Assembly: GCA_963666865.1 (NCBI GenBank)
Contig: OY763072.1
Coordinates: 842,572 to 906,571 of the forward strand
Length of the DNA stretch: 64,000 nt
From: Dehalococcoidia bacterium
GTDB lineage: Bacteria > Chloroflexota > Dehalococcoidia > Lucifugimonadales > UBA3495
Direction: 5' to 3'
This document shows positions 7,707 to 60,751 of this stretch, piece after piece. Each line of letters opens with the position of its first letter. Position 1 is the first letter of the stretch. Both the position numbers and the translations under genes were made by a program. Below the pieces are notes generated by a model. The model ran no database searches. It was not told where the DNA came from and saw only the letters and a list, made by a program, of their open reading frames with translations.

Positions 7707-7931
7707 GCCGCCGGTTGCAACTTGGGTCGGCTGGCCCGGTGCGCGTCTGTCCACGCGTGAGCGAGCGCCAGTATGCGCGGTCCGCACAGTCGAAGTAGTT
7801 GTACTGCTTTCAGAGAGAGACACTACCGACAAATGCGGAGATTTCACGCCCAGCAGCGCGTGTGCTACAATGCGGTCACCGGGCGGGACGGCTGTGGTCC
7901 GCCCGACAACAAATGCCAGGGAGGTGCCACA

Positions 7932-8564
7932 ATGGCCGAATCCGATTTCACCGTTTATTACGACTTTCGTTGACCCTTCGTGTACAACGCTGCCATGTGG
8001 TGGGCGAAAGTACGCGAGAACACCGACCACGAAATCACCGTGGATCTGAAGCCGTTCTCGCTGGTTCAGGTAAATCACGACAACAACAATGACGACGGGT
8101 TCAAGTACTGGGAGCAGGACGACTCTGACAACACCCTGCTGGAACTCCGGGCCGGCATCGCCGCCCAGCGCCAGGGTGAGGAGATCTTCGACCGCTTCTT
8201 CATCAACCTGCTCAAGGCTCGCCACGAGGACCGCATTGACCTGACCGACGCCGATGCCATCAACGCGGTGGCCGAGGCCTCCGGCGTGGACATGGGCCAG
8301 TTCGCGGAAGACCTGGCCGACCCTGACGTCCTCCGGGAAATCGGCGAGAGTCACACCGAGGCTGTGGAAGTTCACGGCGCGTTCGGCGTCCCTCTGTACG
8401 TCTTCCCCAACGGCAACTCCGCCTTCGTCAAGATGTTCATTCCCTCCGACGACGAGTCCGGCGCCATCTATGACAACCTCGTCGAGATGATGGCCGACCA
8501 CAAGCACGTCGGTGAGGTCAAGCGGCCCTCCCCGCCGTGGCCCTACGAAGGTGTGCGCGGATAA
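7932..8564 (+). CDS. DsbA-like thioredoxin-fold oxidoreductase; candidate selenoprotein (in-frame TGA 7971..7973)
   Basis: GGGAGGTG lies 7 nt before ATG 7932. MAESDFTVYYDFR-TGA-PFVYNAAMWW..., same frame as ORF 7980..8564. The TGA falls at the Cys of the DsbA-type YxDxxCP(F/W) motif. GTG 7980 has no RBS. Confidence 0.6.
7977..8018 (+). promoter_or_regulatory. candidate SECIS-like hairpin downstream of TGA 7971
   Basis: Outer stem uucguguac/guacgcgag (9 bp including 2 GU); inner stem cgcugcc/ggugggcg with one bulged G; apical loop AUGU at +25..+28 from the U of UGA. Confidence 0.35.
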
Positions 8565-17886: not shown

Positions 17887-18918
17887 TCACCGCACCGGCG
17901 TTAGAGTGTCACGTAGAATACCCGCGCAGGTCTCCCACGAAAAATTCAGGGCGTATTCCCGAACTTGCTCGCGGTGGCACGCCATCGCCCGCCGGACTGC
18001 CGCGGCAAGGTCGTCGTCCAACGCGCCGGAAATGCCGTCGGCGACCACATCCCGTGGCCCGGTGACCGGGTAGGCCGCCACCGGCGTCCCGCAGGCCATG
18101 CTCTCGGTGATGACGTTGCCGAAGGTATCGGTGCGGCTGGGAAACACCATCACGTCGGCGGATGCGTAGAACTGGGCCAGCTCATGCCCGCGCTTGAAAC
18201 CGACAAAGGCGACCCGGTCGCCGTAGCGCTGTTCCAGTTCTTCCCGGTATGGGCCGTCCCCAACCACCCAGCAACGGTGGCCGGGGATTGACGCCAGTTC
18301 GCAAAATTCATCCACGCTCTTTTCCCGGCTGACGCGGCCAACGTACACCAGCGCGGCCTCTTTCGGGTTCGCCAGATCGTACCAACCTTCGGTGCGCGCC
18401 GACGGGTGGAACAGCGTCGAGTCGACACCGCGGGGCCATACCACCAGGTTGCTGAAACCTGATCTTTGCAGATCGTCCTTCACGCTCTGGGTCGGTGCCA
18501 GCGTATGTTCTGCGCCGCCGTGGAACCAGCGCATATACGCGGTCACCAGCCCGGAAGGAAATCCGTACATCTCCTTCACGTACTCCGGGAACCGGGTGTG
18601 GTAGCTGGTGGTGAAGCGAAAACCCCGGCGACCACACCAGAATCTAGCCACGGTTCCTAACGGTCCTTCGGTTGCGATGTGGACGAAATCGGGATTGATG
18701 TCGTCGAGGGCGCGGTAGATTCGCACCGGTTCTATCGCGAGCCGTACCTCCGAGTAACGGGGCAATCGCACGGTCCGGAACAGCGCGGGGTGGACCACAG
18801 TTACGTCAACATCCCGCTTTTCCAGTTGCGGTATGACGTTGTTGAAGGTGTTGACTACGCCGTTGACCTGTGGCGCCCAGGCGTCGGTGACCAGGGCCAA
18901 CCGGTATCGTTCAGCCAT
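17887..18918 (-). CDS. GT4-family glycosyltransferase
   Basis: 343 aa; N-terminal VTDAWAPQVNGVV and C-terminal E..G....E(S)MACG motif. Confidence 0.8.
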   Translation of the reverse strand: MAERYRLALVTDAWAPQVNGVVNTFNNVIPQLEKRDVDVTVVHPALFRTVRLPRYSEVRLAIEPVRIYRALDDINPDFVHIATEGPLGTVARFWCGRRGFRFTTSYHTRFPEYVKEMYGFPSGLVTAYMRWFHGGAEHTLAPTQSVKDDLQRSGFSNLVVWPRGVDSTLFHPSARTEGWYDLANPKEAALVYVGRVSREKSVDEFCELASIPGHRCWVVGDGPYREELEQRYGDRVAFVGFKRGHELAQFYASADVMVFPSRTDTFGNVITESMACGTPVAAYPVTGPRDVVADGISGALDDDLAAAVRRAMACHREQVREYALNFSWETCAGILRDTLTPVR

Positions 18919-18926
18919 TGGCGCGC

Positions 18927-19352
18927 TCAGGAAGGCCGGTCCCGACGCTCCTGCTCTCGCTCCTCCGCCTTGTCGCGCAGGGGACGCCCCTTGTCCGGGG
19001 TCGGGTCTTTCACCAGGCCGTAGATGGCGCGGCCTTCGTGGTCTTCAGGAAGATATTCCGTGATGGGCAGACCGCCCTCCGTCACGAAAAGCAGTCAATG
19101 ACAGTACTTGTAGATCTGCATATCGTCGCAGGCGCAGATCCAGGTGCGGTGCTTGATCTCCTCCGTCTTACAGGGGTAGAAGCGGCAGGGGCAGAGGGGT
19201 CGGCCGAGTTCATCAACGTTCTGGGCGAGGCCCAGGATTACGGATTCGGCGATTCCCTCTTCCGGGTGCGTGAATGTGCCCGACTTCTCGCAATAGCGTT
19301 CGACAAACAGGCGCATCCGCTGGATGGCTTTTTCACTGGGCTGGTCAGCCAA
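18927..19352 (-). CDS. ferredoxin-thioredoxin reductase catalytic-subunit-like protein; candidate selenoprotein (in-frame TGA 19097..19095)
   Basis: AAGGAG lies 7 nt before TTG 19352. ...GRPLCPCRFY..WICAC..YKYCH-TGA-LLFVTEGG... The frame stays open 55 more codons to TGA 18929..18927, 8 nt before the downstream GT start. The TGA replaces the last Cys of the FTR CHC(M/L)LF motif. Confidence 0.65.
19065..19077 (-). promoter_or_regulatory. candidate SECIS apical stem-loop
   Basis: mRNA GGGC-GGUCU-GCCC; loop at +25..+29 from the U of UGA. Extendable by further pairs with two 1-nt bulges. Confidence 0.4.
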
Positions 19353-19575
19353 TTCAATTCTCCTTGGTGTGTGCGGCTATAGTGTTTCAAACCCTTCGCA
19401 TGAGTGGTCGAAAACGTCGCTCAATGATAATGGGATATGTTCAACTCTGCAATGCCGCGCCGGTGTGCGGCGCGCCGGCTGCCTTGACGCCGAATGTTGC
19501 CGGGCCGACAATGTCTGTCGCGTTTGAAACGGCGCGACGCCCGATTTTGACATTCCGGCAGGAGGCCAAATCGAC

Positions 19576-22665: not shown

Positions 22666-24528
22666 ATGAAGATCGCCGTCTGCGTTAAATTTGTCCCCGT
22701 AGTTTCGCGCATCGAGTTCGACTATGAGAACAAGGTGATACAACGGGAGGGTGTGCCGTCGGAGATTAATCCCTTCGACCTGTTGGGCATCAACATGGCG
22801 GTGGACCTGAAAGACGGCGATGCAGACTCAATAATCGCTTTGTCAATGGGTCCACCCAACGCCGCCGAGGGCCTCACGCAGTGCTACGCGCTGGGCGCCG
22901 ACCGGGCCTTGCTGCTGTCCGACCGGGCATTGGCCGGCAGCGACACGCTGGCGACGGCGCAGGCCCTGGCCCTGGCCCTGCAGCGTGAGGCTCCCGACCT
23001 CATCGTCTGCGGACGCAACAGCAGCGACGCCGAGACCGGCCAGGTGGGGCCGGAAGTCGCTGAGCTGATGGGACTGCCCCACATCAGCAACGTCCGCAAG
23101 CTGGAGGTGGACCGCTCCGCTAACCGCATCACGGTCGAGCGCGTGACCGACGAGGGCTATCAGGTGCTGGAATGCGGGCTGCCCGCAGTGGTGTGCGTCA
23201 CGGAAGGGGCCGGCCAGGAACGCTATCCGGGTCGGGAGGAAATGGCCGAGGCGGAGGGCAAAGCCATTGAGCAGTTGACCTGCGCTGATTTGACCGATCC
23301 GCCACAGGCGGACTTGTTCGGACTGGAAGGCTCGCCCACGTGGGTTGAGGACATCCGCCTGGTGGAACCCGACCGGCTGGGTGTGGTGATCCGGGACGAG
23401 ACGCCGGAGGACGCGGCACGGCAAGTCGCTGATATGCTCCGGGAACGGCTGGCCACGATAACCGCCGCAGGAGAGCAGGGTTCCGGCGACGCGGCGGCGG
23501 TGCGCTACGCCGGCGGGGACCGAAGCATCTGGGTGTTGGCGGAGTTGGCGGGTGGCGGCGTGCGGCAGGTTACGCTGGAAATGCTGGGCAAGGCCCGGGC
23601 GCTCGCTCCAATCACCCAGAGCGAGGTGGTAGCGGTTGTTATAGGCGAAGGTGCGCCGGATGAGGCCATCACCGGGCAATTGGCGGAGTACGGCGCCGAC
23701 CGCATCCTGACGCTGGATACCACCGGGCTGGGTATGCTCTGCGGTCGCGGCGTGGCGGACACGCTGTCCGATGCCATCGCGCAATCCGCCTCCGGCGGAC
23801 CCTACGCCGTGCTGTTCGCGGCCACCGCCGACGGGCGGGATCTCGCCGCCCGCATCGCCGCCCGGCAACGCCTTGGCCTCACTGGCGACGCCATCGACCT
23901 GGAGATCAACGACGCCGGCCAGTTGGTGCAGTTGAAACCGGCCCTGGGCGGCAACGTGGTTGCGCCCATTCTGTCCAAAACCCTGCCGAACCTGGTCACG
24001 CTGCGGCCGGGCGTGCTGACGCCGGCAGCGCCGGAACCGGGTGCGACGGCGCCCGTAGAAGCCATCGCTCCATCACCCGCCGCCGGCTCCGACGCAACAT
24101 TGGTCAGCGAGCATCTTTCCGAGGAACACGGCGCGCTGGAACTCACCTCCGCCGAGGTGGTGGTCGGCCTCGGTATGGGGGTGACGGAAGAGGGAGTGCC
24201 CGCCGCGCAGAAGTTGGCGTCAAGCATAGGCGCGTCCATCGCTACGACCCGCAACGTGGTGCATTCCGGCTGGCTGCCGCATCACATCCAGGTGGGCATC
24301 AGCGGGCGCACCATCGCGCCGCAGGTCTATCTGGCGGTGGGCATCCGGGGAGCGTTCAACCACACCGTCGGCATACAGAAAGCCGGCATTATCCTGGCCA
24401 TCAATCGCAACCACCGGGCGGCCATCTTCCGCGCCGCCGACTACGGGATAGTCGGCGACTGGAACGAATACCTGCCGCCGCTGGTTGAGGCCATCGGCCC
24501 GGTACTGGCGGAGCACGGGCTGGGATGA
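22666..24528 (+). CDS. fused electron-transfer flavoprotein, EtfB (N-terminal) plus EtfA (C-terminal), 620 aa
   Basis: N-terminal MKIAVCVKFVP...NPFD...GPEVAELMGLPH (beta subunit). C-terminal PQVYLAVGIRGAFNHTVGIQKAGIILAINRN (alpha subunit FAD site). Confidence 0.8.
   Translation: MKIAVCVKFVPVVSRIEFDYENKVIQREGVPSEINPFDLLGINMAVDLKDGDADSIIALSMGPPNAAEGLTQCYALGADRALLLSDRALAGSDTLATAQALALALQREAPDLIVCGRNSSDAETGQVGPEVAELMGLPHISNVRKLEVDRSANRITVERVTDEGYQVLECGLPAVVCVTEGAGQERYPGREEMAEAEGKAIEQLTCADLTDPPQADLFGLEGSPTWVEDIRLVEPDRLGVVIRDETPEDAARQVADMLRERLATITAAGEQGSGDAAAVRYAGGDRSIWVLAELAGGGVRQVTLEMLGKARALAPITQSEVVAVVIGEGAPDEAITGQLAEYGADRILTLDTTGLGMLCGRGVADTLSDAIAQSASGGPYAVLFAATADGRDLAARIAARQRLGLTGDAIDLEINDAGQLVQLKPALGGNVVAPILSKTLPNLVTLRPGVLTPAAPEPGATAPVEAIAPSPAAGSDATLVSEHLSEEHGALELTSAEVVVGLGMGVTEEGVPAAQKLASSIGASIATTRNVVHSGWLPHHIQVGISGRTIAPQVYLAVGIRGAFNHTVGIQKAGIILAINRNHRAAIFRAADYGIVGDWNEYLPPLVEAIGPVLAEHGLG
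23785..23799. repeat. TCCGCC-N3-GGCGGA palindrome (loop TCC), the only copy outside an IS
   Basis: tccgcctccggcgga, in frame (SASGG) inside etfBA. Confidence 0.8.
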
Positions 24529-25357: not shown

Positions 25358-25864
25358 ATGGCCTGGAATGACATCATTGTTGAAACACTGAAGAAGTGGG
25401 ATACGTCGCTGATCGCGTACGTGCCCGACATCTCCATCGACCGGGTGACCAGCCTCATCGAGGCCGATCCGTACTTCCACCTGGTGTCCTGCACCCGCGA
25501 GGAGGAGGCCGTCGGCGTGGCGGTGGGGAGCTACGCGGTGGGCCGCAACGCCGCCGTGTTCATGCAGTCCAGCGGATTCGGCAACAGCATCAACGGCATC
25601 GCCAGCCTGTGCCTGCCGTCTCGCACGCCGATACCGATCTTTATGAACTTGCGCGGTCAGGTGGGCGAATTCAATATTGCCCAGGTCGCAATGGGACGGA
25701 ACACCAAGCCTATCCTGGATCTGTTCGGCATCGCCCACTACACCATCGAGAGCGAAGACCGCATGGATACGCTGCTGGACGGCGTGATGAAGCTGTGCCA
25801 CGCCCACCGCAACCCGGTGGCGATTTGCATGACCCCGATGCTCCACGGAGGCAAAATTGCTTAG
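25358..25864 (+). CDS. ThDP-dependent decarboxylase alpha subunit (sulfopyruvate/phosphonopyruvate decarboxylase-like)
   Basis: 168 aa N-terminal PYR domain; split-gene arrangement with the next ORF. Confidence 0.6.
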   Translation: MAWNDIIVETLKKWDTSLIAYVPDISIDRVTSLIEADPYFHLVSCTREEEAVGVAVGSYAVGRNAAVFMQSSGFGNSINGIASLCLPSRTPIPIFMNLRGQVGEFNIAQVAMGRNTKPILDLFGIAHYTIESEDRMDTLLDGVMKLCHAHRNPVAICMTPMLHGGKIA

Positions 25865-26414
25865 GTTCGACGCCACCCAAATGGTCCTGCGCCACGCCGG
25901 GGATTCCCCCATCGTGGGCAACCTCGGCCCCACCAGCGACGAGTTGTACCACGCCGGCCACCGGGACCGGAACTTCTATACCTACGGCAACATGGGGCTC
26001 TGCTCGTCCATCGCCCTGGGGATGGCCCTTTCCACCGACGACAAGGTGATTTCCCTGGACGGCGACGGGTCTCTATTGATGAACCTGGGTACGATAGCCA
26101 CCATCGGGCGGGAGAACCCGACCAACCTGGTCGTCGTCGTATGGGACAACGAAGCCTGGGCGCAGACCGGCGGCCAACCCAGCCACACCTCCACCAACAC
26201 CAACCTGGAAGAAGTGGCGAAATCCTGCGGCATCGCCAAGACCGTCACGGTCAGTGATCTGGAAACGCTGGAGGAAGCGTTCGGACGGGCCATGGCCGAG
26301 CCGGGCCCATGGTTCATCGTCGCCAAGATCGAGGAGGCGGAGCAGTACATGCCCGTCGCGCCGGTGGAGCCGGAGTTCACGCTGTACCGTTTTCGGAATA
26401 CCTACGTGGGGTGA
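25857..26414 (+). CDS. ThDP-dependent decarboxylase beta subunit
   Basis: GDGSLLMNLG ThDP-binding motif. Overlaps the alpha subunit by 8 nt (TTG start). Confidence 0.6.
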   Translation: MLRFDATQMVLRHAGDSPIVGNLGPTSDELYHAGHRDRNFYTYGNMGLCSSIALGMALSTDDKVISLDGDGSLLMNLGTIATIGRENPTNLVVVVWDNEAWAQTGGQPSHTSTNTNLEEVAKSCGIAKTVTVSDLETLEEAFGRAMAEPGPWFIVAKIEEAEQYMPVAPVEPEFTLYRFRNTYVG

Positions 26415-43669: not shown

Positions 43670-43927
43670 ATGCCGTACCTGCTCGACAGCCTGGCAAGGA
43701 GCGCACGCGCGATGAGTTGGATCAGCAACGCCGTAAGGAGCGCACGCGCGATGCGTTGGGTTACCAACGCAATCTTTTTCGTCGGGGTGCCCGCCGGCAT
43801 TGTTGCAGGGCTTGACGTGGGCGGGCAATGGGACGTTCCCGAGTGGCTCCTTTACACGTGCGCCCTGGCCATCGCAGTAGTCCTGGTAGCCGGGATAGCA
43901 GTGGTCATTTTCGCCAAGGCGGACTAG
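43670..43927 (+). CDS. small membrane protein with a 33-nt tandem repeat
   Basis: ARSARAMSWISNAV / RSARAMRWVTNA repeat (about 43696..43761), then two hydrophobic helices. Confidence 0.35.
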   Translation: MPYLLDSLARSARAMSWISNAVRSARAMRWVTNAIFFVGVPAGIVAGLDVGGQWDVPEWLLYTCALAIAVVLVAGIAVVIFAKAD

Positions 43928-46797
43928 CTGACTCCCGCCGTATCAGGGCCCGGCCCCGCCCGCTCCAGGTTCAGCGCCAGCAGTCGTTCCAGTATCTCCC
44001 CGTCCGCCAAATCGGCCGGCCAGCCATACGCCTCGGCAACGGCGGCATCCAGGGCGGCGTGGGCGTTGCTCAGCCAGGTGGGACGCTGGTTGTAGAGATT
44101 GGTCAGCGTGCGGCGGCGTCCGCCGAGGCGGACTCCGCTGAGGTCCGTCGGATTCAGCCAGTTCTCCCGCAGGCGGTTCAGCTCAGCGGCGGCCGCGACG
44201 ATGGCCTCCCGCTGCTCGCCGGCGGGATGGGGGAAGGGGAAGGTTTCAAAGCACGTTGTTGGCGTGTAGCGCAGTCCGCTCGTCGCTTCACGCAGCTGAG
44301 TACCCATCGCCGTCGCCCAGAGAATGTGTATTCGGCTTTGCAACACTCCAAAGAAATAATCGTCATCACGAGCGAACACAATAATAGTAGCGTCAGGCAA
44401 TACCTCACCATCAATCCAACGAAACATCCGGTGTCTGGACACCATGCTGGTGCCAACGTAGCGTCCTAAACCGGCCAATGCCTGCCGCATACCGGGGCGA
44501 GCCTCGGCATGTATCCACCACAGTTGAGCGTAACGTTTTCTTCTGTTTTGAATCCTGTCGGGCTTTACATTCGCCGCAACATACTCAAAGGGTGCCTCGT
44601 ACAGAGCGGCATCGGACTCCGGCATATCTACGCCGAAGTCAATTATCCACATATGCCGGGAGCGCTGGTTAATGTCTCTGCCTATCATCCAACGCCTGAT
44701 GACATCACTGTTTGGCTTGCCGTGAGGATTGGGGGCACTCAACATCTCCTTCGCAACTTCGCCAGTTATTTCAAAAGGACCAACCTTCGTATCCCCCATG
44801 AAACTGATACTTGCATTTTCTTCCAGCCTCCGCGCCAGCGCCAAATCAGCCCCTGCCGTCAAGTCAACATTGATATTTGTAACCGCATGACCGTCCAGAT
44901 AGCGGTCAGTATCGCTCCCGTCGTCAAAACAGACGATGGAGACATGCACGGCGGCTCCCTCCAGCACCCAATCCTTATCTGACATGGCGGCAAAAATATC
45001 GCCGGTCTCTTTGATGCGAGCAAGCACCGGCCGGTTAGACTGGAACCGTATTGCTTGTGTCGCCAACAGGCCGGTCCGCTTGGTAGCGCCCGATGCAATC
45101 TGGCCCCGCGCTTTTTCGAACCAATAGCAGCACAGGTCGCTGTAGTTGGGAATGCGGTTGCCGTAAAGCGAGTACGCTGCACTTACGTAGTCATCGCCTA
45201 GCGACTCACGAAAAGGGAAATGGCCCAAAAACGGCGGGTTCCCCACGATAAACTCCGCCGCCGGCCATTCCGGTTCCGCGGGATGCTCCGGGTTAGACAG
45301 GTCAAGAATAGCGTCGGTCTGGCGGATGGTATCCAGCGGGGTCAGTATCGGGCGGTGGGTGTAGGGGAAGCCGTTGGCCTGGTGCCATTGGATGTAGCCA
45401 ATCCAGAGGGCGGTGCGGGTCAGTTCGGCGGCGTAGTGGTTGATTTCGAGGCCCAGCATCTGGTCGGGCTGCACCGTGGGCGTCAGGCCATGCCAGCCCT
45501 GGGCCGCGGCGAAGTCGATGACCTGTTTCTCCAAATCCAGCAGCGAGCGCAGGGCCAGGTAGAGGAAGTTGCCGCTGCCGCAGGCCGGGTCCAGCACGCG
45601 CACGCCGGCCAGCCGCTTCTGGAACTCCTCCAGCCGTTGCCGCGCCGGCGTATCGTCAGAAGCAGGATTCGCCGGATTGGTGGGATTGACCGGATTGGGG
45701 GGTTCTCCATCATTGAACGGCTCCAATCCTGATAATCCTTCAAATCCCGAAAATCCTGCTTCTGACAAAAGCTCCTCAATCTCCCGCCGGGCGGCGTCCC
45801 ACTCCCGGCGTAGCGGCTCCATCACTACCGGGTCAATGACCAGCATGATGTCGTCGGCGCCGGTGTAGTGGGCGCCCAGTTGGGAGCGTTTGGAGGCGTC
45901 CAGGGCTCGCTCGAACAGGGTGCCGAATATGGACGGCTCGATGTTGCGCCAGTTCTTCTGGGTGGCTTCGCCCAGCCGTTGCAGGGCGGTGGCGCTCAAT
46001 TCCACCGTGTCCCCGGATCCTTGACCAAATCCCTTGAACAGGTCCCCGTTGAAGTGGGGAATCTCGTCGGCCCCGAACAGGCCGCCGCCGGCCATTTGGG
46101 CAAAGAGGTCGGCCACGGCCTGATTGAACAAGTCCTGGCGGCGGAACAGTTGGCGCACGGTACGGGTGAACAGTCCCTCGGGCAGCAGTCCGGCGTCCTC
46201 GGCGTAGAGGCAGAAGACAATCTGGTTGAGGTAGCGGGCCAGCCGTTCCGGCCCCGTATCGGAGTACGGGGTGACGTTGTCTATGCGGGCCTCCATGTCG
46301 GCCACGATGTCGCGGAACAGGTCGGCGGTTTCCTGGGTAACCTGCTCCACCGTGCGGTTGGGGCGGAACTCGGCCGGCGCGAAAAAGGCGTTGCGCAGCT
46401 TGTCCAGATGTTCGGGCCGGTCCAGCTCAGCGACGGGGATCACGTGGAGGATGGTTTCCAAGCCCGGAAAGTTGGTGCGTATCCGGATGGTGTCGAAAGA
46501 CGACACGATGAGCAGGGGCGGCGTTTTCAGATAGACCTGGTAGCGTAGCAACTGGTTGATGGCTTCCGGCAGCTGCGCGTCGCTGCTTTTGAACTCCCAG
46601 CCGAACCGCTCCTCCAGGTAGGCGTCGGCAAAGCCGCCGGGCACCGCCTTCTCGAAGGTGAAAACCTCCGGGTTGCCGTAGGCCACCGGCGTGGGATGAC
46701 CCACCAGGGCGCAGATGTCCAGGAACATCTCCTGCGACGCCTGCTTCTCGCCGAAAGTGACTCCCTGCCACTTGGCGATGAACTGCTGGGGAGTCAT
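43924..46797 (-). CDS. MmeI-like type IIL restriction-modification enzyme (nuclease plus N6-adenine methyltransferase in one chain)
   Basis: N-terminal GFADAYLEERFGWEFKS (D...ExK as in the MmeI family), LDPACGSGNFL (motif I), GNPPF (motif IV), 957 aa. GGAG lies 9 nt before ATG 46797. Confidence 0.8.
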   Translation of the reverse strand: MTPQQFIAKWQGVTFGEKQASQEMFLDICALVGHPTPVAYGNPEVFTFEKAVPGGFADAYLEERFGWEFKSSDAQLPEAINQLLRYQVYLKTPPLLIVSSFDTIRIRTNFPGLETILHVIPVAELDRPEHLDKLRNAFFAPAEFRPNRTVEQVTQETADLFRDIVADMEARIDNVTPYSDTGPERLARYLNQIVFCLYAEDAGLLPEGLFTRTVRQLFRRQDLFNQAVADLFAQMAGGGLFGADEIPHFNGDLFKGFGQGSGDTVELSATALQRLGEATQKNWRNIEPSIFGTLFERALDASKRSQLGAHYTGADDIMLVIDPVVMEPLRREWDAARREIEELLSEAGFSGFEGLSGLEPFNDGEPPNPVNPTNPANPASDDTPARQRLEEFQKRLAGVRVLDPACGSGNFLYLALRSLLDLEKQVIDFAAAQGWHGLTPTVQPDQMLGLEINHYAAELTRTALWIGYIQWHQANGFPYTHRPILTPLDTIRQTDAILDLSNPEHPAEPEWPAAEFIVGNPPFLGHFPFRESLGDDYVSAAYSLYGNRIPNYSDLCCYWFEKARGQIASGATKRTGLLATQAIRFQSNRPVLARIKETGDIFAAMSDKDWVLEGAAVHVSIVCFDDGSDTDRYLDGHAVTNINVDLTAGADLALARRLEENASISFMGDTKVGPFEITGEVAKEMLSAPNPHGKPNSDVIRRWMIGRDINQRSRHMWIIDFGVDMPESDAALYEAPFEYVAANVKPDRIQNRRKRYAQLWWIHAEARPGMRQALAGLGRYVGTSMVSRHRMFRWIDGEVLPDATIIVFARDDDYFFGVLQSRIHILWATAMGTQLREATSGLRYTPTTCFETFPFPHPAGEQREAIVAAAAELNRLRENWLNPTDLSGVRLGGRRRTLTNLYNQRPTWLSNAHAALDAAVAEAYGWPADLADGEILERLLALNLERAGPGPDTAGVS

Positions 46798-46880
46798 AAC
46801 CACGCTCCATGTTGAATGATGCAAAGTCTGGGAGTTATGCTACCATTGACTGACGATTACTGCTGGACGGGTACTTAATT

Positions 46881-50101: not shown

Positions 50102-51290
50102 GCAGGGCTATCGCATATGAAAAATTGAGGTGTCAGGTAAGATAGCGTCCAAACTGCTGAGGTGGGGAGGACACCATGAGCGAGCTAGCGGACGTATTTG
50201 GCGATTTGGAAGACCCTCGGGCCGTCAATGCGCGTCTCCATTCCCTGCACGACATTCTGGTCATCGCTCTATGCACCATCGTCTGCGGCGGTCAGACTTG
50301 CACCGACATGGAGCTTTTCGGGCATTCCAAACGGGAGTTTCTGGAGTCCTTTCTGAATCTGGAAAACGGCATTCCCAGCCACGACACTTTCTCCCGGGTG
50401 CTGGGCAAACTGGATCCGGAAGCTTTCCAGCGGTGGTTTTTGAGGTTCATGGAACAGTTCGCTCAAGGGGTTCAGGGAGTGGTGGCCATGGACGGGAAGA
50501 CCTTGCGGCGTTCTTACGACCACGCGGCAGGACAGTCCGCCCTGCATCTGGTCAGCGCTTGGGCGGAAGAGCGGCGCCTGGTGTTGGGACAATTGGCCGT
50601 TGACGACAAGTCCAACGAGATTACGGCGTTGCCCAAGCTGTTGGAAATGTTGACCTTGCAAGGCAAGGTGGTTACCGTCGATGCCCTGAATTGTCAGCGT
50701 CAGATTGCTCAGCAAGTGATTGACCAGGAGGGCGACTACGCGCTAGCGTTGAAAGGCAATCAAGGTACGCTCTACGACGATGTAAAACTGTTTCTGGACG
50801 ACGCGGACACGCCGGCAGCTCAGGCCACCCAGGTCAGCAAGGGCCACGGACACATTGAAACCCGCACCGCCAGTATTAGCGACGACGTAGCCTGGCTGCA
50901 GGAATGGCACGACTGGCCGGGCTTGCAGGCCGTGGGTAAAGTAACAGCGGTCCGCCGTAAAGACGGCGACACCAGCGAGGAAACTCGTTATTACCTGCTG
51001 AGCCAGGCCTTCCCGCCGGAGCATTGCAACGACATCGTGCGCGGCCATTGGGGCATTGAGAACCGGCTGCATTGGGTATTGGACGTAACCTGCAACGAAG
51101 ACCAGGCGCGGAACCGGAAAGGGCATGGCGCGGAGAACCTGGCGTTGCTGCGTAAGTTGGCGCTGAATCTGGCGCGGTTGGAACCAAGCAAGGGGTCCAT
51201 GCGGGGCAAACTGAAACGGGCCGGTTGGGACAACTGCTTCCTCATCAACATCCTCTCCCAATTCACCAAAATCCATATGCGATAGCCCTG
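50102..51290 (+). mobile_element. ISAs1-family insertion sequence, apparently intact
   Basis: Perfect 17-bp inverted repeats cagggctatcgcatatg (50102..50118) and catatgcgatagccctg (51274..51290). Confidence 0.9.
50176..51285 (+). CDS. ISAs1-family (H-repeat-associated) transposase
   Basis: 369 aa uninterrupted; DPR...H.L.DIL, AMDGKTLRRS, DALNCQ and HWGIENRLHWVLDV motifs. Confidence 0.9.
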   Translation: MSELADVFGDLEDPRAVNARLHSLHDILVIALCTIVCGGQTCTDMELFGHSKREFLESFLNLENGIPSHDTFSRVLGKLDPEAFQRWFLRFMEQFAQGVQGVVAMDGKTLRRSYDHAAGQSALHLVSAWAEERRLVLGQLAVDDKSNEITALPKLLEMLTLQGKVVTVDALNCQRQIAQQVIDQEGDYALALKGNQGTLYDDVKLFLDDADTPAAQATQVSKGHGHIETRTASISDDVAWLQEWHDWPGLQAVGKVTAVRRKDGDTSEETRYYLLSQAFPPEHCNDIVRGHWGIENRLHWVLDVTCNEDQARNRKGHGAENLALLRKLALNLARLEPSKGSMRGKLKRAGWDNCFLINILSQFTKIHMR

Positions 51291-52689: not shown

Positions 52690-53092
52690 GGCTCCGCCGC
52701 CTTCGTGCCTCCGCCTCCGGAAGACATCCCCGCCCTGCTGGACGACCTGATGGCCTTTTGCAACGACGACGGGCTATCTCCCTTGGCCCAGGCCGCCATT
52801 GCTCACGCCCAGTTCGAAACCATCCACCCCTTCGTGGATGGCAACGGGCGCGCCGGATGGTCACTGGTTCACCTGGTGCTGCGCCGACGTGGGATAGCAA
52901 CGCGGTTTCGGCCGCCGGTCTCCCTGGTCCTGGCGACGTGGGCAGAGGACTACGTAACGGGGCTTACGACCACTCGCTACGTCGGCGAACCCAGGCTCGG
53001 AGGCTGCCCACAAGGGCATGAATCGCTGGGTCGCCTTCTTTCCCGGAGCGTGCCGGCGAGCGGTGTCGGACGCCCGACAGTTCGAGGATCCG
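52690..53092 (+). pseudogene. Fic-domain protein remnant (N-terminal part missing, 3' end run into IS)
   Basis: AAFVPPPPEDIPALLDDLMAF...AHAQFETIHPFVDGNGRAG (Fic HPFxDGNGR motif). Stop at 52684..52686 in the same frame just upstream. Confidence 0.75.
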
Positions 53093-53207
53093 GGCCAGCT
53101 GAGATAGCGGGGTGAAGTGAGACCATGCTGGGCGAGCGATCCGACCAGAGGGGCCTGTGGGAGGCGGACCAGTTGTACTTGGATCTGGTGGGTAAGGACA
53201 CGTTCTA

Positions 53208-53222
53208 TCCGCCCATGGCGGA
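53208..53222. repeat. TCCGCC-N3-GGCGGA palindrome (loop CAT) in IS1182-like tnp
   Basis: tccgcccatggcgga, at frame switch 1. Confidence 0.9.
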
Positions 53223-53617
53223 CTGGCCTCGTTGCGGGGCCAGCTGTTCCGCGACGCCGACTTCGCCGAGCTGTACTGCCTGGACAATGGCCGGGTCAGC
53301 GTGCCGCCCAGCCTCCTGGCCACGGCGCTGCTGTTGCAGACCCACGACAAGGTGAGCGACGCCGAGGCCAAGGCTCGGGCCGACTTCGACATCCGGTGGA
53401 AGGTGGCGTTGGGGATTGAGATCGAGGATCGGCCCTTTGCCAAGAGCACACTGCAGGTGTTCCGTGCCCAGTTGATCCTGCACGACAAGGTGCGTGAGGT
53501 GTTCGAGCAGAGCCTGCGGTTGGCCCGTGAGGCCGGCTACCTGAAGGGAAAGCGTGGGATGCGGGTGGCGATGGACACGACGTACATCCTGGGACGCGGT
53601 GCGGTGAAGGACACCTA

Positions 53618-53632
53618 CCCGCCTGAGGCGGA
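53618..53632. repeat. (C)CCGCC-N3-GGCGGA palindrome (loop TGA) in IS1182-like tnp
   Basis: cccgcctgaggcgga, at frame switch 2. Confidence 0.9.
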
Positions 53633-54105
53633 TTGGCCGACGGCATCGTGAAGCTGATGCGGGCTTTGGCGGCGGTGGAGGGTATTCCGATGCGGCGCTG
53701 GGCGGAGGGCCACGGTTACAAACGCTACGTGGGCAGCAGCGTGAAGGGAGAGGCGGCCATCGACTGGTCCAACCGTCGGGCGCGGCGGAGGCTGTTGGGA
53801 CAGATTGTGGCGGATGCCGACCGGCTGCTGGAATTGGCCCGTCAGGCCCAGGACGCGTTGGACGCCGACAGCGCCGAGCGGCAGGCGATAGTTGACGCGG
53901 CGGAGTTGCTGGGCCAATTACTGCTCCAGGACGTGAAGCGTGGTGACGACGACGATAATGGTGACGGCGGGGTGAGCCTGAAAGAGGGTGTGAGCAAGGA
54001 CCGGATGGTGTCGGTGCACGATCCGGAGATGCGCCACGGCCACAAGAGCAAGAGCAAGAGCAAGCGCTTTGACGGGCACAAGGCCGCGGTGGTGGTGGAC
54101 ACCGA

Positions 54106-54120
54106 TCCGCCTCAGGCGGA
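54106..54120. repeat. TCCGCC-N3-GGCGGA palindrome (loop TCA) in IS1182-like tnp
   Basis: tccgcctcaggcgga, at frame switch 3. Confidence 0.9.
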
Positions 54121-54205
54121 TTGATCACCGCGGTGGACGTTTTGGCGGGCAACGCTGCCGACAATCTGGGAGCGCTGGAGTTGGTGGAGCAGAGCGAGGC
54201 CAGCG

Positions 54206-54220
54206 TCCGCCGCAGGCGGA
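54206..54220. repeat. TCCGCC-N3-GGCGGA palindrome (loop GCA) in IS1182-like tnp
   Basis: tccgccgcaggcgga, in frame (VRRRR). Confidence 0.9.
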
Positions 54221-54950
54221 TACCGGTGGTGGAGGCCATGGGTGACACTGCCTACGGCGACGGTGGCACCCGCCAGGCTTTCGCCGACGCGGGGCGCAAG
54301 CTGGTGGCCCGAGTGCCGGGCCGTCCCAACCGGAAGTGTTTCCCCAAGGAAGACTTCATCATCGACCTGACCCAGGGAAGTTGCACCTGTCCGGCGGGAC
54401 AGGTCACCTGCACCATCGTGCCGGCGGGGAAACGAACCGACAGTGCTGGGACGGTGCATCGTCTGCAAGCCTTCCGCTTTGACGGTGCGGTGTGCCAGGG
54501 CTGTCTGCTGCGGTCCCGATGCTTTACCGCCACAGGCAGGAAGGGAAGGCAGGTGCTGATCCACCCGCAGGAAGGCTTGTTGCAAGAGGCTCGGGCGTTG
54601 CAGCAGAGCGCTGACTACGACCAGTACCGGCAACTACGCGTGGTGGCGGAGCATCGACTGGCTCGGCTGGAGCAGTTGGGCATCCGTCAGGCCCGTTACT
54701 TCGGGCGGGTCAAGACCAAGTTCCAGTTGTACCTGGCCGCCACGGTGGCGAACTTAACCCTGATGGCCAACCAAACCGGTGTGGTCGGTAATTCTGGCGA
54801 TGGCTCCGACTGCATCGTCGCCACCGCTCAAATTGGCGGTAATCTCGGCGTGGGTCGGCACCTAACGACAACCCGGATGCTGGCTTGGCTCAGGTCGCCA
54901 ACACTGGCCCTATCTCTCTCTCCGATCAAGGCTTTCCGGCCCGCTTTCTA

Positions 54951-55833
54951 GCAGCCAGTAGCCCTTGCCCGGTTCTCTCAGGGGACGTATTTCCACGGCG
55001 GCCCAGTCGTAGACCCGGGGGCCTTTGGCTCCATCGCCGGCGCTGCATCTGATCCAGTCGGCCTCGTCAACCTGCGCCGTCAACCGGTCAGCCCTCACCT
55101 GTCTGGGACCCTTGTCCGTCAAAGCCTACAGCTTCTCGTTGCGCTTGATGGCCAGCACGTGGGGAATCCCCTGACGCTCCAGCCACAGCCGCAACTTGCG
55201 GTCACTGCCGTAAACCTCGTCCCCGGTAAACCAAGCGAAGGGAACACCCGATGCCAGAGCCCGCTCCAACATCTGCCGGGCCAGTTGCCCCTTGGTCTGA
55301 AAGCCAACGCTCTCAGGCACCCTGGCCTCGCGCCGCCGCTCCCGGTCATCAGCCCACACCTGGGGCAGGTACAGCTCCCGGTCCAGCAGTGTCCTGCTAT
55401 TGGCCGAGGCATAGGACAGGAATGCCCCAATCTGACAGTTCTCGATCCGCCCCGCCGTACCGCTGTACTGGCGCTGCACCCCAGCCGATTTCTCCCCTTT
55501 CTTGATGAATCCGGTCTCGTCCACCACCAGGACCGCATCTCCGTCGCCCAGATGCTCGACCACATACTGTTTCAGATCATCCCGGACCAGGTCCGCGTCC
55601 CAGATGTAACCCGACAGCAGGCGCTGCACACCGTAGGGAGTGGCGTCGCCCGCTTGCTCCGCCAACTGCCAGCCGTTCTTGCGTTCTACCGGGCTGAGCA
55701 ACCCTTTCAGATACTCCAGGGCCCGCCTGCGCGGCTCCGGCCGCTGAAACCTGCCTGCGATGCACTGGTGTACCCGCTCAATGCCCTCGGCCCACCGGGC
55801 GACCTCCGCCACCTCGTCTCTCCCAACAACCAT
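54951..55833 (-). pseudogene. IS701-family transposase remnant (copy 2), 3' third removed by the IS1182 insertion
   Basis: [21 protein letters not shown]...[32 protein letters not shown]...; in-frame TAG (NEKL*ALTDKG) where copy 1 has Trp. Ends at ...GKGYWLL next to the IS1182 end. Confidence 0.8.
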
Positions 55834-55940: not shown

Positions 55941-56755
55941 ATGGAAATTACGGAAGAACAGTACCAACGGATCGCGCCGCACTTCCCCGTACAGCGAGGC
56001 AACGTCAGCATCCCCAACTTGCAGGTGTTGAACGCTATCCTCTACGTCAATGAGCACGGTTGCAAATGGCGGGGTTTGCCTCCGTCCTTTGGTGACTGGC
56101 ACACCATCTATACTCGGATGAACCGCTGGTCCAAAAAGGGCGTGCTGGATCGGGTTTTCGCGGCCTTGCAGGAGGAGGGAATTGTCCGGGTCAATGTGGA
56201 GGTGACGGCCTTGGACAGCACCAGCGTGAAGAGCCTGCCCCGTACTGGATACGGGGTGCATCCGGACGGCGCTGGGGCGCTCAAAAAAGCGGGTTGCAAG
56301 CCATCGGCAAGTCCCGGGGCGGCTGGAACACCAAAATTCATCTGGTTGCCATCCGCCTGGGGCGGAAGCGCAATGCGGTGACCCCGTATCAGGTACGGGG
56401 CAGGCTCTTTGCGCTGTCGCCCGGGGAAGCTCATGACGGGCCGGAGGGCCGCCGCCTGTTGGAAAGTTTGGGGCCGCAAGAACCTGGGACCAAGTTGCTG
56501 ATGGATCGGGCCTATGAAGGCAACCCCACCCGCGGGTTGGCGGTGGAATTGGGGTATGACCCGGTAGTGCCGCCGTTGCGCAGTCGGAAAGAACCCTGGG
56601 AATATGATCGGGAGATGTACAAAAGGCGGAACGAAGTCGAGCGACTGTTCCGGCGGTTGAAAAGGTTCCGCCGCATCTTCAACCGATACGACAAGCTGGA
56701 TGCGATTTTCAGCGGCTTCATCCTGTTCGCCCTCATCTACGATGCCCTGCAATAG
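55941..56755 (+). CDS. IS5-family transposase OrfA/OrfB (two frames; a -1 shift is needed)
   Basis: OrfA ...NAILYVNEHGCKWRGLP...; OrfB QAIGKSRGGWNTKIH...MDRAYEG...RNEVERLFRRLKRFRRIFNRYDK. Contains three short palindromic extra segments, so activity is doubtful. Confidence 0.65.
56238..56256. repeat. CCCCGTA-N5-TACGGGG palindrome (loop CTGGA) in IS5-like orfA
   Basis: Lies within an in-frame extra 8-aa segment (SLPRTGYG) relative to the expected VKxH..AAGA. Confidence 0.8.
56283..56289 (+). promoter_or_regulatory. A6G slippery run at the orfA/orfB overlap (possible programmed -1 frameshift or transcriptional slippage)
   Basis: ctc aaa aaa gcg. A -1 shift gives ...LKK-SGLQAIGKSRGG. Confidence 0.45.
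56352..56366. repeat. TCCGCC-N3-GGCGGA palindrome (loop TGG) in IS5-like orfB
   Basis: tccgcctggggcgga. Part of an extra segment of about 11 aa between HLV and FALSPGEAHD. Confidence 0.9.
56382..56400. repeat. CCCCGTA-N5-TACGGGG palindrome (loop TCAGG) in IS5-like orfB
   Basis: ccccgtatcaggtacgggg, 15 nt after the previous palindrome. Confidence 0.85.
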
Positions 56756-57083: not shown

Positions 57084-57855
57084 TCACGGCGTCACCTCGT
57101 ACTCCACCTGCGCCACCTTTCGCTCCCCGTCGTACATCATTACCCAGTAACGGCCCGTAACCCACCGGTCGGGATCGGAAGGACCCAGCGGAGTTCTCCA
57201 CCAACCGCTGGTTCTTCCTGGCTGAAAATAAAAGTCGAAAATCTCCCTGTCAAATGCGAAGCCGTCCATGTAGTACTCCACTGTCTCAAGGGGAACGGAT
57301 ATGAGTTCGGTGGATTGGGAGAACTCGAACCTCCGGTACAAGTACACCCGGCCCTCGATCTCCTTGAGCTCCGAGATCGACACTTGGGACGTCCGCGTGT
57401 CCGCGTCCGCCGGCCATTCCTGGTCCAGCGAGATGAATGCGTCCGCAATCCGCCCGTTGATGCTCGGTAGGCTGGGATCTGCCGGCCGATCATCCAGGTA
57501 GCTCAGGTCGTACGGCTCGGTACCGTAGTACCACCGGTTGATCACTGTGTCCACCGCTGCGATAACATCAGGCCCGGCGCCCTTTTTGAACGCATCGTCC
57601 ACCGCGTCAATGCCACCGTGGACGCTCCGTCCCTTTGTCGCTCGGTACAGGTTGCGGAACCCTTGCTGGAACTGATCCCGTCCCAGCGTCCGGTACAGGT
57701 CCAGGAACAGCCGTTCCCCCAGCGAGTAGTTGCAACTGAACTCCGCCCAGTAGCCGCCGCCTGGGTTCTGGGGATCCGCTCGGTCCAACTCGCCCAGGTT
57801 TGCGTAGTAGGCGCATGGACCCCAGTCCGCGGTCAGCGGTGCGCCGGTGAGCGTG
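57084..57855 (-). pseudogene. C-terminal fragment of an unidentified (possibly peptidase-like) protein, 5' part removed at the IS1182 copy 2 junction
   Basis: Coding-like 257 codons (…YYANLGELDRADPQNPGGGYWAEF…). The apparent ATG at 57872 lies inside IS-derived sequence. Confidence 0.5.
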
Positions 57856-57872
57856 TTATCCACGGTGATCAA

Positions 57873-57887
57873 TCCGCCTGAGGCGGA
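57873..57887. repeat. TCCGCC-N3-GGCGGA palindrome (copy of 54106..54120)
   Basis: tccgcctgaggcgga. Confidence 0.9.
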
Positions 57888-58354
57888 TCGGTGTCCACCA
57901 CCACGGCGGCCTTGTGCCCGTCGAAGCGCTTGCTCTTGCTCTTGTGGCCGTGGCGCATCTCCGGATCGTGCACCGACACCATCCGGTCCTTGCTCACACC
58001 CTCTTTCAGGCTCACCCCGCCGTCACCATTATCGTCGTCGTCACCACGCTTCACGTCCTGGAGCAGTAATTGGCCCAGCAACTCCGCCGCGTCAACTATC
58101 GCCTGCCGCTCGGCGCTGTCGGCGTCCAACGCGTCCTGGGCCTGACGGGCCAATTCCAGCAGCCGGTCGGCATCCGCCACAATCTGTCCCAACAGCCTCC
58201 GCCGCGCCCGACGGTTGGACCAGTCGATGGCCGCCTCTCCCTTCACGCTGCTGCCCACGTAGCGTTTGTAACCGTGGCCCTCCGCCCAGCGCCGCATCGG
58301 AATACCCTCCACCGCCGCCAAAGCCCGCATCAGCTTCACGATGCCGTCGGCCAA

Positions 58355-58369
58355 TCCGCCTCAGGCGGG
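58355..58369. repeat. TCCGCC-N3-GGCGG(G) palindrome (copy of 53618..53632)
   Basis: tccgcctcaggcggg. Confidence 0.9.
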
Positions 58370-58764
58370 TAGGTGTCCTTCACCGCACCGCGTCCCAGGA
58401 TGTACGTCGTGTCCATCGCCACCCGCATCCCACGCTTTCCCTTCAGGTAGCCGGCCTCACGGGCCAACCGCAGGCTCTGCTCGAACACCTCACGCACCTT
58501 GTCGTGCAGGATCAACTGGGCACGGAACACCTGCAGTGTGCTCTTGGCAAAGGGCCGATCCTCGATCTCAATCCCCAACGCCACCTTCCACCGGATGTCG
58601 AAGTCGGCCCGAGCCTTGGCCTCGGCGTCGCTCACCTTGTCGTGGGTCTGCAACAGCAGCGCCGTGGCCAGGAGGCTGGGCGGCACGCTGACCCGGCCAT
58701 TGTCCAGGCAGTACAGCTCGGCGAAGTCGGCGTCGCGGAACAGCTGGCCCCGCAACGAGGCCAG

Positions 58765-58779
58765 TCCGCCATGGGCGGA
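58765..58779. repeat. TCCGCC-N3-GGCGGA palindrome (copy of 53208..53222)
   Basis: tccgccatgggcgga. Confidence 0.9.
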
Positions 58780-59304
58780 TAGAACGTGTCCTTACCCACC
58801 AGATCCAAGTACAACTGGTCCGCCTCCCACAGGCCCCTCTGGTCGGATCGCTCGCCCAGCATGGTCTCACTTCACCCCGCTATCTCAGCTGGCCCGGAGT
58901 ATAACCTCCACTTCGCCAGGCGGGGTTTCCGGCCAGCTTTCTAGGGCGTGTCGTCAAATTATTTTAGTCCAGAGTGCGATGGCGCGGATCTGGCAGTTAG
59001 CCAAGAAAGAAGCGGCTTTCTTGGCATATCGGGTCGCAACCCCGCGCCATTGCTTGAAGTTGCAAAATCCATTCTCCACCAAGTGCCGCGCCTGGTACAA
59101 ATCCCGGTCGTATTCCCGCTGCTCCCGACGGTTGCTCCGGGGCGGTTTCACCACGTTCATCCCCCACGATGATGCCATGGCCACGATTTGATTGGTGTCA
59201 TACCCTTTGTCCGCCAGCAGATGCTCCGCCGCGATACCCTCGATCAATGCCAGCCCCTGAGTACAATCGGCAGTGGCGCCTGCCGTCAGTATCATCCGCA
59301 CCGG

Positions 59305-60223: not shown

Positions 60224-60508
60224 CTATCTAGCGGGCACATCCAGAATTTTCGAGAGCCGCTTTTCGTCATAGGTTGGCGCGATTTCGTCGGACGGTTTTT
60301 GAAACTGGAGTAGCGAAATCGCCTGAACAGAGTACAGTGTGCCAATTTTCAGCGCGCTATGACGCGGGACAGACACCCGATGCTCACGTCCCCTGATGTT
60401 GGTGACCAGCCGCATATGGCTGCCCCTCTGCCGTACAACCCGGTAGCCATAGTGGCGGCGGAGTAGCCCGACCAACTCCTCGCCGGACATATCTCTGGGC
60501 AGCATCAC
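60224..60508 (-). CDS. hicA: HicA-family mRNA interferase toxin
   Basis: LPRDMSGEELVGLLRRHYGYRVVRQRGSHMRL...VPRHSALKIGTL. GTGATG start overlaps the hicB stop. Confidence 0.7.
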   Translation of the reverse strand: MMLPRDMSGEELVGLLRRHYGYRVVRQRGSHMRLVTNIRGREHRVSVPRHSALKIGTLYSVQAISLLQFQKPSDEIAPTYDEKRLSKILDVPAR

Positions 60509-60714
60509 ACCGCGACGACCTCGTCCTTCACCAGCCGCAGCCGCAGCGTTGCCGGCGCAGGCCCGTCATCAAAATGGCACAGTACGGCGTCTTGTGCCAT
60601 CAGCTTCAGTTCTTCCTAGGAGTCGCCCTGGGTGATGATGTCGTGTCCCACTGCCGCAGCATAATAGCCGCCTTCTTCGGCTTCATGCACTTCACAAACC
60701 ACCTCGTCCGGCAT
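60505..60714 (-). pseudogene. hicB: HicB-family antitoxin with in-frame amber codon
   Basis: MPDEVVCEVHEAEEGGYYAAAVGHDIITQGDS-TAG-EELKLMAQDAVL... TAG at 60618..60616, where the family usually has Leu (GDTLEEL). Confidence 0.6.
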
Positions 60715-60751
60715 AATCGACTTGCCTCCATTCAATTGCAGTGATCGTTAC

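Follow-up and report, generated by a model that had tools for sequence, protein, structure and literature searches.

A ferredoxin:thioredoxin reductase-like gene of Dehalococcoidia in which an in-frame UGA very probably encodes selenocysteine at the last position of the third cysteine motif

We analysed a 64,000-nt stretch of the genome of a marine, SAR202-type Dehalococcoidia bacterium (contig OY763072.1 of assembly GCA_963666865.1, positions 842,572 to 906,571 of the forward strand), hereafter the window, in whose coordinates all positions without a locus name are given. It contains a gene for a homologue of the catalytic subunit (FTRc) of ferredoxin:thioredoxin reductase (FTR), with a TGA in frame at the codon where homologues have the last Cys of their third Cys motif. 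We consider it very probable that this is a genuine selenoprotein gene, in which UGA at codon 86 is translated as selenocysteine (Sec). A preliminary description, made from the window alone, had proposed Sec at the last Cys of a CHC motif with a hairpin downstream, and that proposal is supported here by pairs of Sec- and Cys-encoding relatives, by the selection acting on the gene, by the hairpin itself, and by a tRNA-Sec gene in the clade.

The coding sequence occupies 18927..19352 on the minus strand and would encode 141 residues before its stop codon, with Cys motifs C54-P-C56, C73-A-C75 and C84-H-U86. A ribosome-binding site, AAGGAG (19360..19365, minus), is separated by a 7-nt spacer from a TTG start codon (19352..19350); the position of the start is common to orthologues, the codon itself being TTG, GTG or ATG. 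There are 85 sense codons upstream of the TGA (19095..19097), encoding a peptide of the form GRPLCPCRFY...ICAC...YKYCH that ends in ...ICACDDMQIYKYCH. Codon 56, in the CPC motif, is TGC, so that codon 86 alone is TGA. Downstream the frame stays open for 55 codons (LLFVTEGGLPITEYLPEDHEGR...RDRPS, in full LLFVTEGGLPITEYLPEDHEGRAIYGLVKDPTPDKGRPLRDKAEEREQERRDRPS) to the true stop, a TGA at 18927..18929, which lies 8 nt before the ATG (18918) of a GT4-family glycosyltransferase gene (17887..18918, minus). Start, ribosome-binding site, peptide, TGA position, open frame and 8-nt junction were all reproduced exactly as first described. Open reading frame (ORF) callers, as anticipated, report a truncated product of 85 aa, and with it a separate piece of 52 aa.

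The 8-nt junction had also been taken for a normal operon junction. Its spacing is as claimed, but a functional operon with the glycosyltransferase gene is not borne out. That gene, just 3' of the FTR-like gene, is strain-variable: the window and the related loci L003, L007 and L008 have it, and L001, L002, L004 and L005 lack it. The tight junction is therefore no sign of a functional operon, and we rejected the link.

Membership in the FTRc family is clear. With the TGA read as Cys, the protein scores 74.6 bits against Pfam PF02943 (FeThRed_B, FTR catalytic chain; cut-off 22), compared with 60.9 bits for the truncated 85 aa alone, so the match extends through the TGA. Structures of FTRc were matched over residues 3–92, with E values of 3e-23 for 7BZK (Arabidopsis) and 7e-20 for 1DJ7 (Synechocystis). 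C54/C56, C73/C75 and C84/[TGA]86 align one-to-one, at an offset of one residue, with Cys55/57, 74/76 and 85/87 of 1DJ7, which puts the TGA at Cys87 of Synechocystis FTRc. The pattern of six positions, CPC-x16-CxC-x8-CHC, is present in full, with UGA at the sixth position and CAC rather than CPC as the middle motif. Column 86 is Cys in 16 of 16 aligned full-length homologues. Both alignments thus agree with the original placement of the TGA on the last Cys of the CHC motif. In FTRc the ligands of the [4Fe-4S] cluster are Cys55, 74, 76 and 85, and the redox-active disulfide joins Cys57 to Cys87, the latter lying next to the cluster.

The Pfam and PDB matches stop near residue 92, and alignment with classical FTRc takes in no more than the first 7 or so of the 55 codons after the TGA. 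Residues 93–141 are a C-terminal extension common to close orthologues of this subfamily only. The expectation that the downstream codons would be conserved therefore holds for orthologues, and for classical FTRc it fails beyond those first codons. A protein search returned 2,490 homologues; the best are likewise 141 aa long and 76–87% identical, some of them labelled Chloroflexota or SAR202. No match to FeThRed_A, the variable subunit, was found among the ~45 window ORFs scanned with Pfam, and this subunit (FTRV) has been reported to be exclusive to oxygenic phototrophs (PMC9025218). The protein is therefore an FTRc homologue, not part of a classical heterodimeric FTR. An AlphaFold model of the closest Cys orthologue is of moderate quality (pLDDT 70, and 47–62 in the cluster region) and was not used. 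Codon 61 (about 19172..19170, minus) encodes an extra Cys (RFYPCK) in part of the Sec clade, including the window, where most relatives have Asp or Ser.

How codon 86 varies among relatives was surveyed by scanning one genome per GTDB species, which gave 80 loci, mostly from Dehalococcoidia and SAR202 metagenome-assembled genomes, several of them from sponges. Codon 86 is TGA in 38 of these species representatives, TGC in 37 and TGT in 5, and the frame runs intact to ...RPS-stop in 80 of 80; a TGA that recurs in this way at one codon goes well beyond chance. The truncated 85-aa product is found unchanged on 11 contigs, two of which are ~4.0-Mb long-read contigs, in at least 6 assemblies. Ten loci with that identical product differ from the window by 3–17 nt across the gene. 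Of the 15 codons that vary among them 3' of the TGA, 13 are changed synonymously, and third positions account for 14 of the 15 variable bases. Two further TGA lineages have other gene neighbourhoods, one with TatABC and lipoamide dehydrogenase/E1, the other with PrpD and glyoxalase/thiolase. In a rough neighbour-joining gene tree the window belongs to a large clade of 37 species that are all Sec-forms, and a further three Sec lineages, smaller in size, lie among Cys-forms, giving at least 4 state changes from a Cys root.

A hairpin that resembles the bacterial selenocysteine insertion sequence (SECIS) follows the TGA at 19057..19088 (minus). Its lower stem pairs 19088..19082 with 19063..19057, and its upper stem pairs GGGC (19077..19074) with GCCC (19068..19065) around the loop GGUCU (19073..19069). 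Read along the RNA from 19088 to 19057, the fold is UUCGUGA / CGGA / GGGC-GGUCU-GCCC / A / UCACGGA. The apical element GGGC-GGUCU-GCCC spans 19077..19065; counted from the U of UGA, its loop is at +25..+29. The folding energy of 19086..19055 is -11.7 kcal/mol. For the interval +8..+48, the native sequence folds at -14.4 kcal/mol and synonymous recodings of the same peptide at -8.2 ± 2.4, with 1.5% of recodings folding as well as the native. The z score against synonymous recodings averages -1.26 in Sec-forms and +0.50 in Cys-forms, and the folding energy of the same interval is -11.0 ± 2.9 kcal/mol in 38 Sec-forms versus -5.5 ± 2.2 in 42 Cys-forms. The codon for the loop-forming residue Gly94 is GGU in 51 of 64 Sec-form genes versus 2 of 42 Cys-form genes; at codon level this is the only sharp synonymous signal. 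All Sec lineages have a hairpin with a G-rich loop (GGUCU, GGUC, GGU, GGA or CGGGC) at about +24..+29. The SECIS-like hairpin first noticed just downstream of the TGA is thus a property of the Sec-forms and not of the Cys-forms. In the minimum-energy fold of the whole region 19100..19035 the UGA itself is paired, and with z only -1.67 this fold was left out of the evidence.

The loop sequence had been compared with that of the Escherichia coli fdhF SECIS, said to carry an apical GGUCU one codon nearer the UGA, and E. coli K-12 fdhF indeed has GCAGGUCUGC at +19..+28 after its UGA, with GGUCU at +22..+26. Both hairpins lie directly 3' of the UGA and present GGUCU in the apical loop, and a sister lineage of the window gene has the identical 10-mer GCAGGUCUGC. 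The two differ in that the window loop is 3 nt, or one codon, further downstream (+25..+29 versus +22..+26), and in that the window upper stem is only 4 bp long above an asymmetric internal loop, with stem sequence and register that differ among lineages. We regard the identification of the predicted hairpin as a SECIS as well supported but not proven.

The means to decode UGA as Sec were sought in the window and in related DNA. The one tRNA gene in the 64-kb window is for tRNA-Val, and tRNA-Sec was not found there. In 17 related genomes, 15 of them with the Sec-form and 2 with the Cys-form, ARAGORN calls a tRNA-Sec gene 4.3–5.4 kb upstream of the FTR gene, and Rfam RF01852 confirms the call at 64.7–66.4 bits, its gathering score being 47. 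In this clade tRNA-Sec always adjoins a TrmA/Maf fusion gene. With the fused TrmA/Maf protein as an anchor we reached the orthologous loci on the two ~4.0-Mb contigs, those of L001 and L002, on which the identical 85-aa FTR fragment is encoded. Both carry tRNA-Sec: it scores 70.9 bits with RF01852 in L117 (ERZ25068633 ctg160186) and is called by ARAGORN in L120 (ERZ25068633 ctg160185). The clade tRNA combines a UCA anticodon and a long variable arm with G73 as discriminator and a CCA end encoded in the gene, and is by all these predicted features a canonical tRNA-Sec. The check for a tRNA-Sec gene that the preliminary description had suggested was therefore answered in the clade, on contigs of sister species. 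In the database BSepDB (PMC13326102), the ten bacteria richest in selenoproteins include Dehalococcoidia bacterium UBA1141, with 49, and isolate 10f4566d-ab44-49ae-b774-fc9f760c6436, with 46; locus L094 belongs to the genome of this isolate, for which BSepDB also records the Sec pathway.

Some details of these tRNA-Sec genes were noted in passing. They map to 9375..9471 in L117, 2375..2471 in L120, 2800..2896 in L118 and 5745..5841 in L052, each on the minus strand, and were located in 16 other loci. In the sister species of the window, 14 nt separate the gene from one for a thioredoxin. A gene for a phage-type integrase adjoins it in L118, which suggests that the tRNA-Sec gene serves as an integration site. 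L038 and L039 have a Cys-form FTR gene yet carry tRNA-Sec.

A second gene of the window also appears to be interrupted by a Sec codon. This DsbA-like gene (7932..8564, plus) has a good ribosome-binding site, GGAGG, at 7920..7924, ATG at 7932..7934 and an in-frame TGA at 7971..7973 within the motif D-F-R-U-P-F-V, so that it reads in order GGAGG, ATG, MAESDFTVYYDFR, TGA, PFVYNA.... As called, its ORF starts at 7980 or 7995, and its match to the Pfam DSBA profile begins at profile position 80. With the TGA read as Cys, the match spans profile positions 4–176 and scores 58.6 bits versus 41.9 for the truncated ORF. A hairpin loop lies at +25..+28, and the TGA is kept in L013, L014 and L047. ORF callers truncate the gene to 189–194 aa, and the 189-aa product belongs to a 152-member cluster. 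The motif fits both "DsbA 3 (UxxV)" in the Global Ocean Sampling (GOS) study and "DsbA-like form 2 (DxxUP)" of a 2026 inventory. As a second predicted selenoprotein gene with in-frame TGA, it is support for the reading of UGA as Sec in this organism. Scanning the window for further in-frame TGAs in Cys motifs gave mostly off-frame shadows; one candidate, the TGA at 60507..60505, was rejected as the normal stop of a HicB-like ORF overlapping a HicA start.

Several findings weigh against Sec at codon 86, or against the hairpin as its signal. SelA, SelB and SelD were not found by tblastn with E. coli queries in the window or in ~1.8 Mb of related loci, which together represent <1% of each genome; a weak SelD-like match in L087 proved to be ThiL next to TsaE. 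Both tRNA-Sec-bearing ~4.0-Mb contigs are ~92% identical to the window over the syntenic 14–15 kb, and therefore come from sister species rather than from the window strain. About a quarter of Sec-form sequences fold no better than their synonymous recodings, and the difference in folding between Sec- and Cys-forms (Mann-Whitney p = 1e-10) is uncorrected for relatedness. Synonymous suppression across the region does not single out the hairpin, since lower Sec/Cys entropy ratios occur elsewhere in the gene. Stem sequence and register of the hairpin vary between lineages, with no fixed-column covariation; because the stems slide in register, classical covariation is not countable, and we relied on the Sec/Cys comparison and on synonymous recoding.

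The alternative that fares best, though we consider it very unlikely, is that UGA is decoded as something other than Sec, either under a code reassigned to Trp or Gly, or as Cys by the known kind of tRNA-Sec-like tRNA(Cys) that inserts Cys at UGA. It could draw on the lack of SelA and SelD, on which the identity of the residue as Sec depends, in the ~1.8 Mb searched, and on six "full-length" database proteins of this FTR-like family that have CHW at the Sec position. The CHW proteins are traces of table 4 having been applied to the TGA in some pipeline. The code is not reassigned, since TGA serves as a normal stop for many genes of the window and, in 37 of 64 orthologues, for this very gene. 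At the aligned position relatives always have Cys, and neither Trp nor Gly occurs. Decoding as Cys fits poorly with the clade's UCA tRNA, which scores as a tRNA-Sec and has the G73 expected for charging by SerRS; CysRS requires a U73 discriminator. The Sec pathway and the 46–49 selenoproteins catalogued for related genomes also argue for Sec. PMC5424206, consulted on UGA-to-Cys recoding in Dehalococcoidia, holds nothing on it.

Even less probable is that the TGA is a true stop, and that the gene either became a pseudogene recently or makes a functional protein of 85 residues, with an unrelated small ORF behind it. ORF callers do return separate products of 85 aa and 52 aa (or 32 aa), and a single base change turns TGC or TGT into TGA. 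The truncated product, however, would lack half of the redox pair, and selection does not see the TGA as an end. Across 64 distinct TGA-form genes the ratio of nonsynonymous to synonymous divergence, dN/dS, is 0.079 upstream and 0.091 downstream of the TGA, and 0.078 for the C-terminal extension alone, at dS ~0.9–1.2; the TGA has been retained at that divergence in 38 species-level lineages. None of the 64 genes has an additional stop. In lineage C the longest called ORF past the TGA is only 32 aa, yet all 55 downstream codons are conserved. The terminal stop of the 64 genes is TGA in 37, TAA in 10 and TAG in 17, whereas codon 86 is TGA in all 64, so that the real terminator is TAA or TAG in 27 genes and the interrupting codon never is. 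Recoding bears just this signature: the interrupting stop is UGA every time, beside a terminator that varies freely between the three stops. Relatives carrying a decaying, truncated gene, as a true stop would lead one to expect, were not what we found; their frame with the TGA is intact and is held by purifying selection.

That the TGA is an error of sequencing or assembly, one base away from the TGC or TGT that 42 of 80 relatives carry for Cys, can be dismissed. The same base recurs across independent samples and technologies in 64 distinct gene sequences and in many assemblies, and a long-read assembly has it on contigs covered 34x and 36x. This recurrence answers the preliminary concern that the TGA might be misread.

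With UGA as Sec the preferred reading of codon 86, the protein can be compared with known Sec-containing relatives. The preliminary description knew of no Sec-containing FTR catalytic subunit. That was mistaken, which affects the novelty of the gene and not its interpretation: Sec-containing FTR homologues were reported in 2008 from GOS data, among seven new selenoprotein families (Zhang & Gladyshev, PMC2398784), are also listed in 2022 and 2026 reviews, and are curated as NCBIfam NF041072, "FtrB family double-selenoprotein", a model for the GOS-type family. A Sec-containing FTR has thus been known in kind since 2008, and for a selenoprotein specialist the present gene is an expected type of finding. 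Dataset S2 of the GOS study (PMC2398784) holds two sequences of one family with motifs CPU ... CPC ... CIU and a length of 104 aa, one of the reads being truncated. Like the window protein, members of NF041072 and the GOS family are homologues of the FTR catalytic subunit from marine bacteria, have UGA at the last Cys of the third motif (C-x-U), and have Cys relatives. Unlike it, they are ~104–121 residues long and have two Sec residues (CPU ... CPC ... CIU), so that both redox partners are Sec; the window protein has 141 residues with a conserved C-terminal extension, CPC as its first motif, CAC as its middle motif and a single Sec (CHU). Its match to NF041072 is partial, at 47.5 bits where the equivalog cut-off is 160 bits, and its identity to the GOS protein is 31% over 94 residues. 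Its product would thus function in the manner of those proteins, but the gene falls outside the NF041072 equivalog and is, as predicted from its motifs, a single-Sec member of a different FTR-like subfamily.

Canonical FTRc from chloroplasts and cyanobacteria (1DJ7, 2PVO, 7BZK) shares with the window protein the spacing C-P-C, x16, C-x-C, x8, C-H-C/U, and has M-L-F after the third motif where the window has L-L-F. It differs in having Cys at every position and in forming a heterodimer with the variable subunit (PMC9025218). The window protein, by contrast, belongs to a non-photosynthetic member of the Dehalococcoidia and has predicted Sec at the Cys87 position, CAC in place of CPC, and a 49-residue C-terminal extension. 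A weak but significant match (E 9e-5) was found to PDB 4TPU, which we take to be a Methanosarcina fusion of an FTR-like domain with rubredoxin, acting as a single-subunit disulfide reductase. This too is an FTRc-type domain without a variable subunit in a non-photosynthetic organism; unlike the window protein, it is all-Cys, fused to rubredoxin, and only distantly related.

Forms that differ in Sec position are counted as separate subfamilies in the 2026 inventory, where the two-Sec FTR is the only one listed. Dehalococcoidia genomes were searched in BSepDB by homology to known families, and BSepDB may already hold single-Sec genes of the window type. We put forward tentatively, and with much less assurance than the assignment of Sec itself, that the single-Sec form CPC...CAC...CHU is a distinct, uncatalogued subfamily, widespread in marine and sponge-associated Dehalococcoidia, that arose from Cys ancestors at least 4 times and places selenium at the residue making the cluster bond while the attacking residue stays Cys.

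A mechanism can be outlined by analogy, in which the insertion of Sec, the cluster chemistry, the electron donor and the substrate are all what we infer. SelB carrying Sec-tRNA(Sec) would bind the hairpin 10–41 nt downstream of the UGA and bring Sec to the ribosome. After Sec is placed at codon 86, translation would run for 55 more codons to the stop at 18929..18927 and yield the 141-residue protein. By homology with Synechocystis FTRc, Cys54, Cys73, Cys75 and Cys84 would hold the [4Fe-4S] cluster, and Cys56 and Sec86 would be the redox-active pair, forming a selenenylsulfide in place of the disulfide and being reduced in two one-electron steps. Sec86 would be the cluster-side partner and bond transiently to the cluster, and the attack on the disulfide of the substrate, probably a thioredoxin-like protein, would come from Cys56; ferredoxin may be the electron donor.

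The gene is poorly served by present annotation. In at least 38 species-level genomes it is split into an 85-aa "FTR" fragment and a meaningless ORF of 32–52 aa, or rendered as CHW by the wrong code, and the only curated selenoprotein model for the family (NF041072) misses it. The gene would add an iron-sulfur disulfide reductase to the large selenoproteomes of SAR202-type Dehalococcoidia, which are abundant in the ocean and in sponges, and it offers a case of repeated Cys-to-Sec switching at one catalytic position. If expressed, the product would be a natural enzyme with selenium next to, and probably bonded to, a [4Fe-4S] cluster during catalysis. If the assignments are true, single-Sec, two-Sec and all-Cys forms would make up a natural series that separates the roles of the two redox residues.

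Other features of the window were noted. A perfect 973-nt inverted repeat, with arms at 53089..54061 and 57926..58898 separated by 3,864 nt, lies in an insertion-sequence-rich stretch with transposase ORFs at 50176..51285, 53232..54951, 55126..55833, 56294..56755 and 57084..58755; either a composite-transposon-like structure or an effect of assembly could account for it. At 60224..60735 (minus) a HicA-like toxin ORF (60224..60508) has a HicB-like antitoxin upstream, with a GTGA stop/start overlap, and the HicB-like part is apparently split over two frames. Encoded at 43924..46824 (minus) is a fused restriction-modification enzyme of 966 aa that resembles MmeI and has helicase-spacer, methyltransferase and target-recognition domains.

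Two further loci lie on the plus strand. The 620-aa protein encoded at 22666..24528 has ETF and ETF_alpha domains and looks like a fused electron-transfer flavoprotein; its position is conserved in all related loci. At 25358..26414, the N- and C-terminal thiamine-pyrophosphate domains are found on two adjacent small ORFs (168 and 185 aa), followed by a CBS-domain protein, and the pair looks like a split thiamine-pyrophosphate-dependent decarboxylase.

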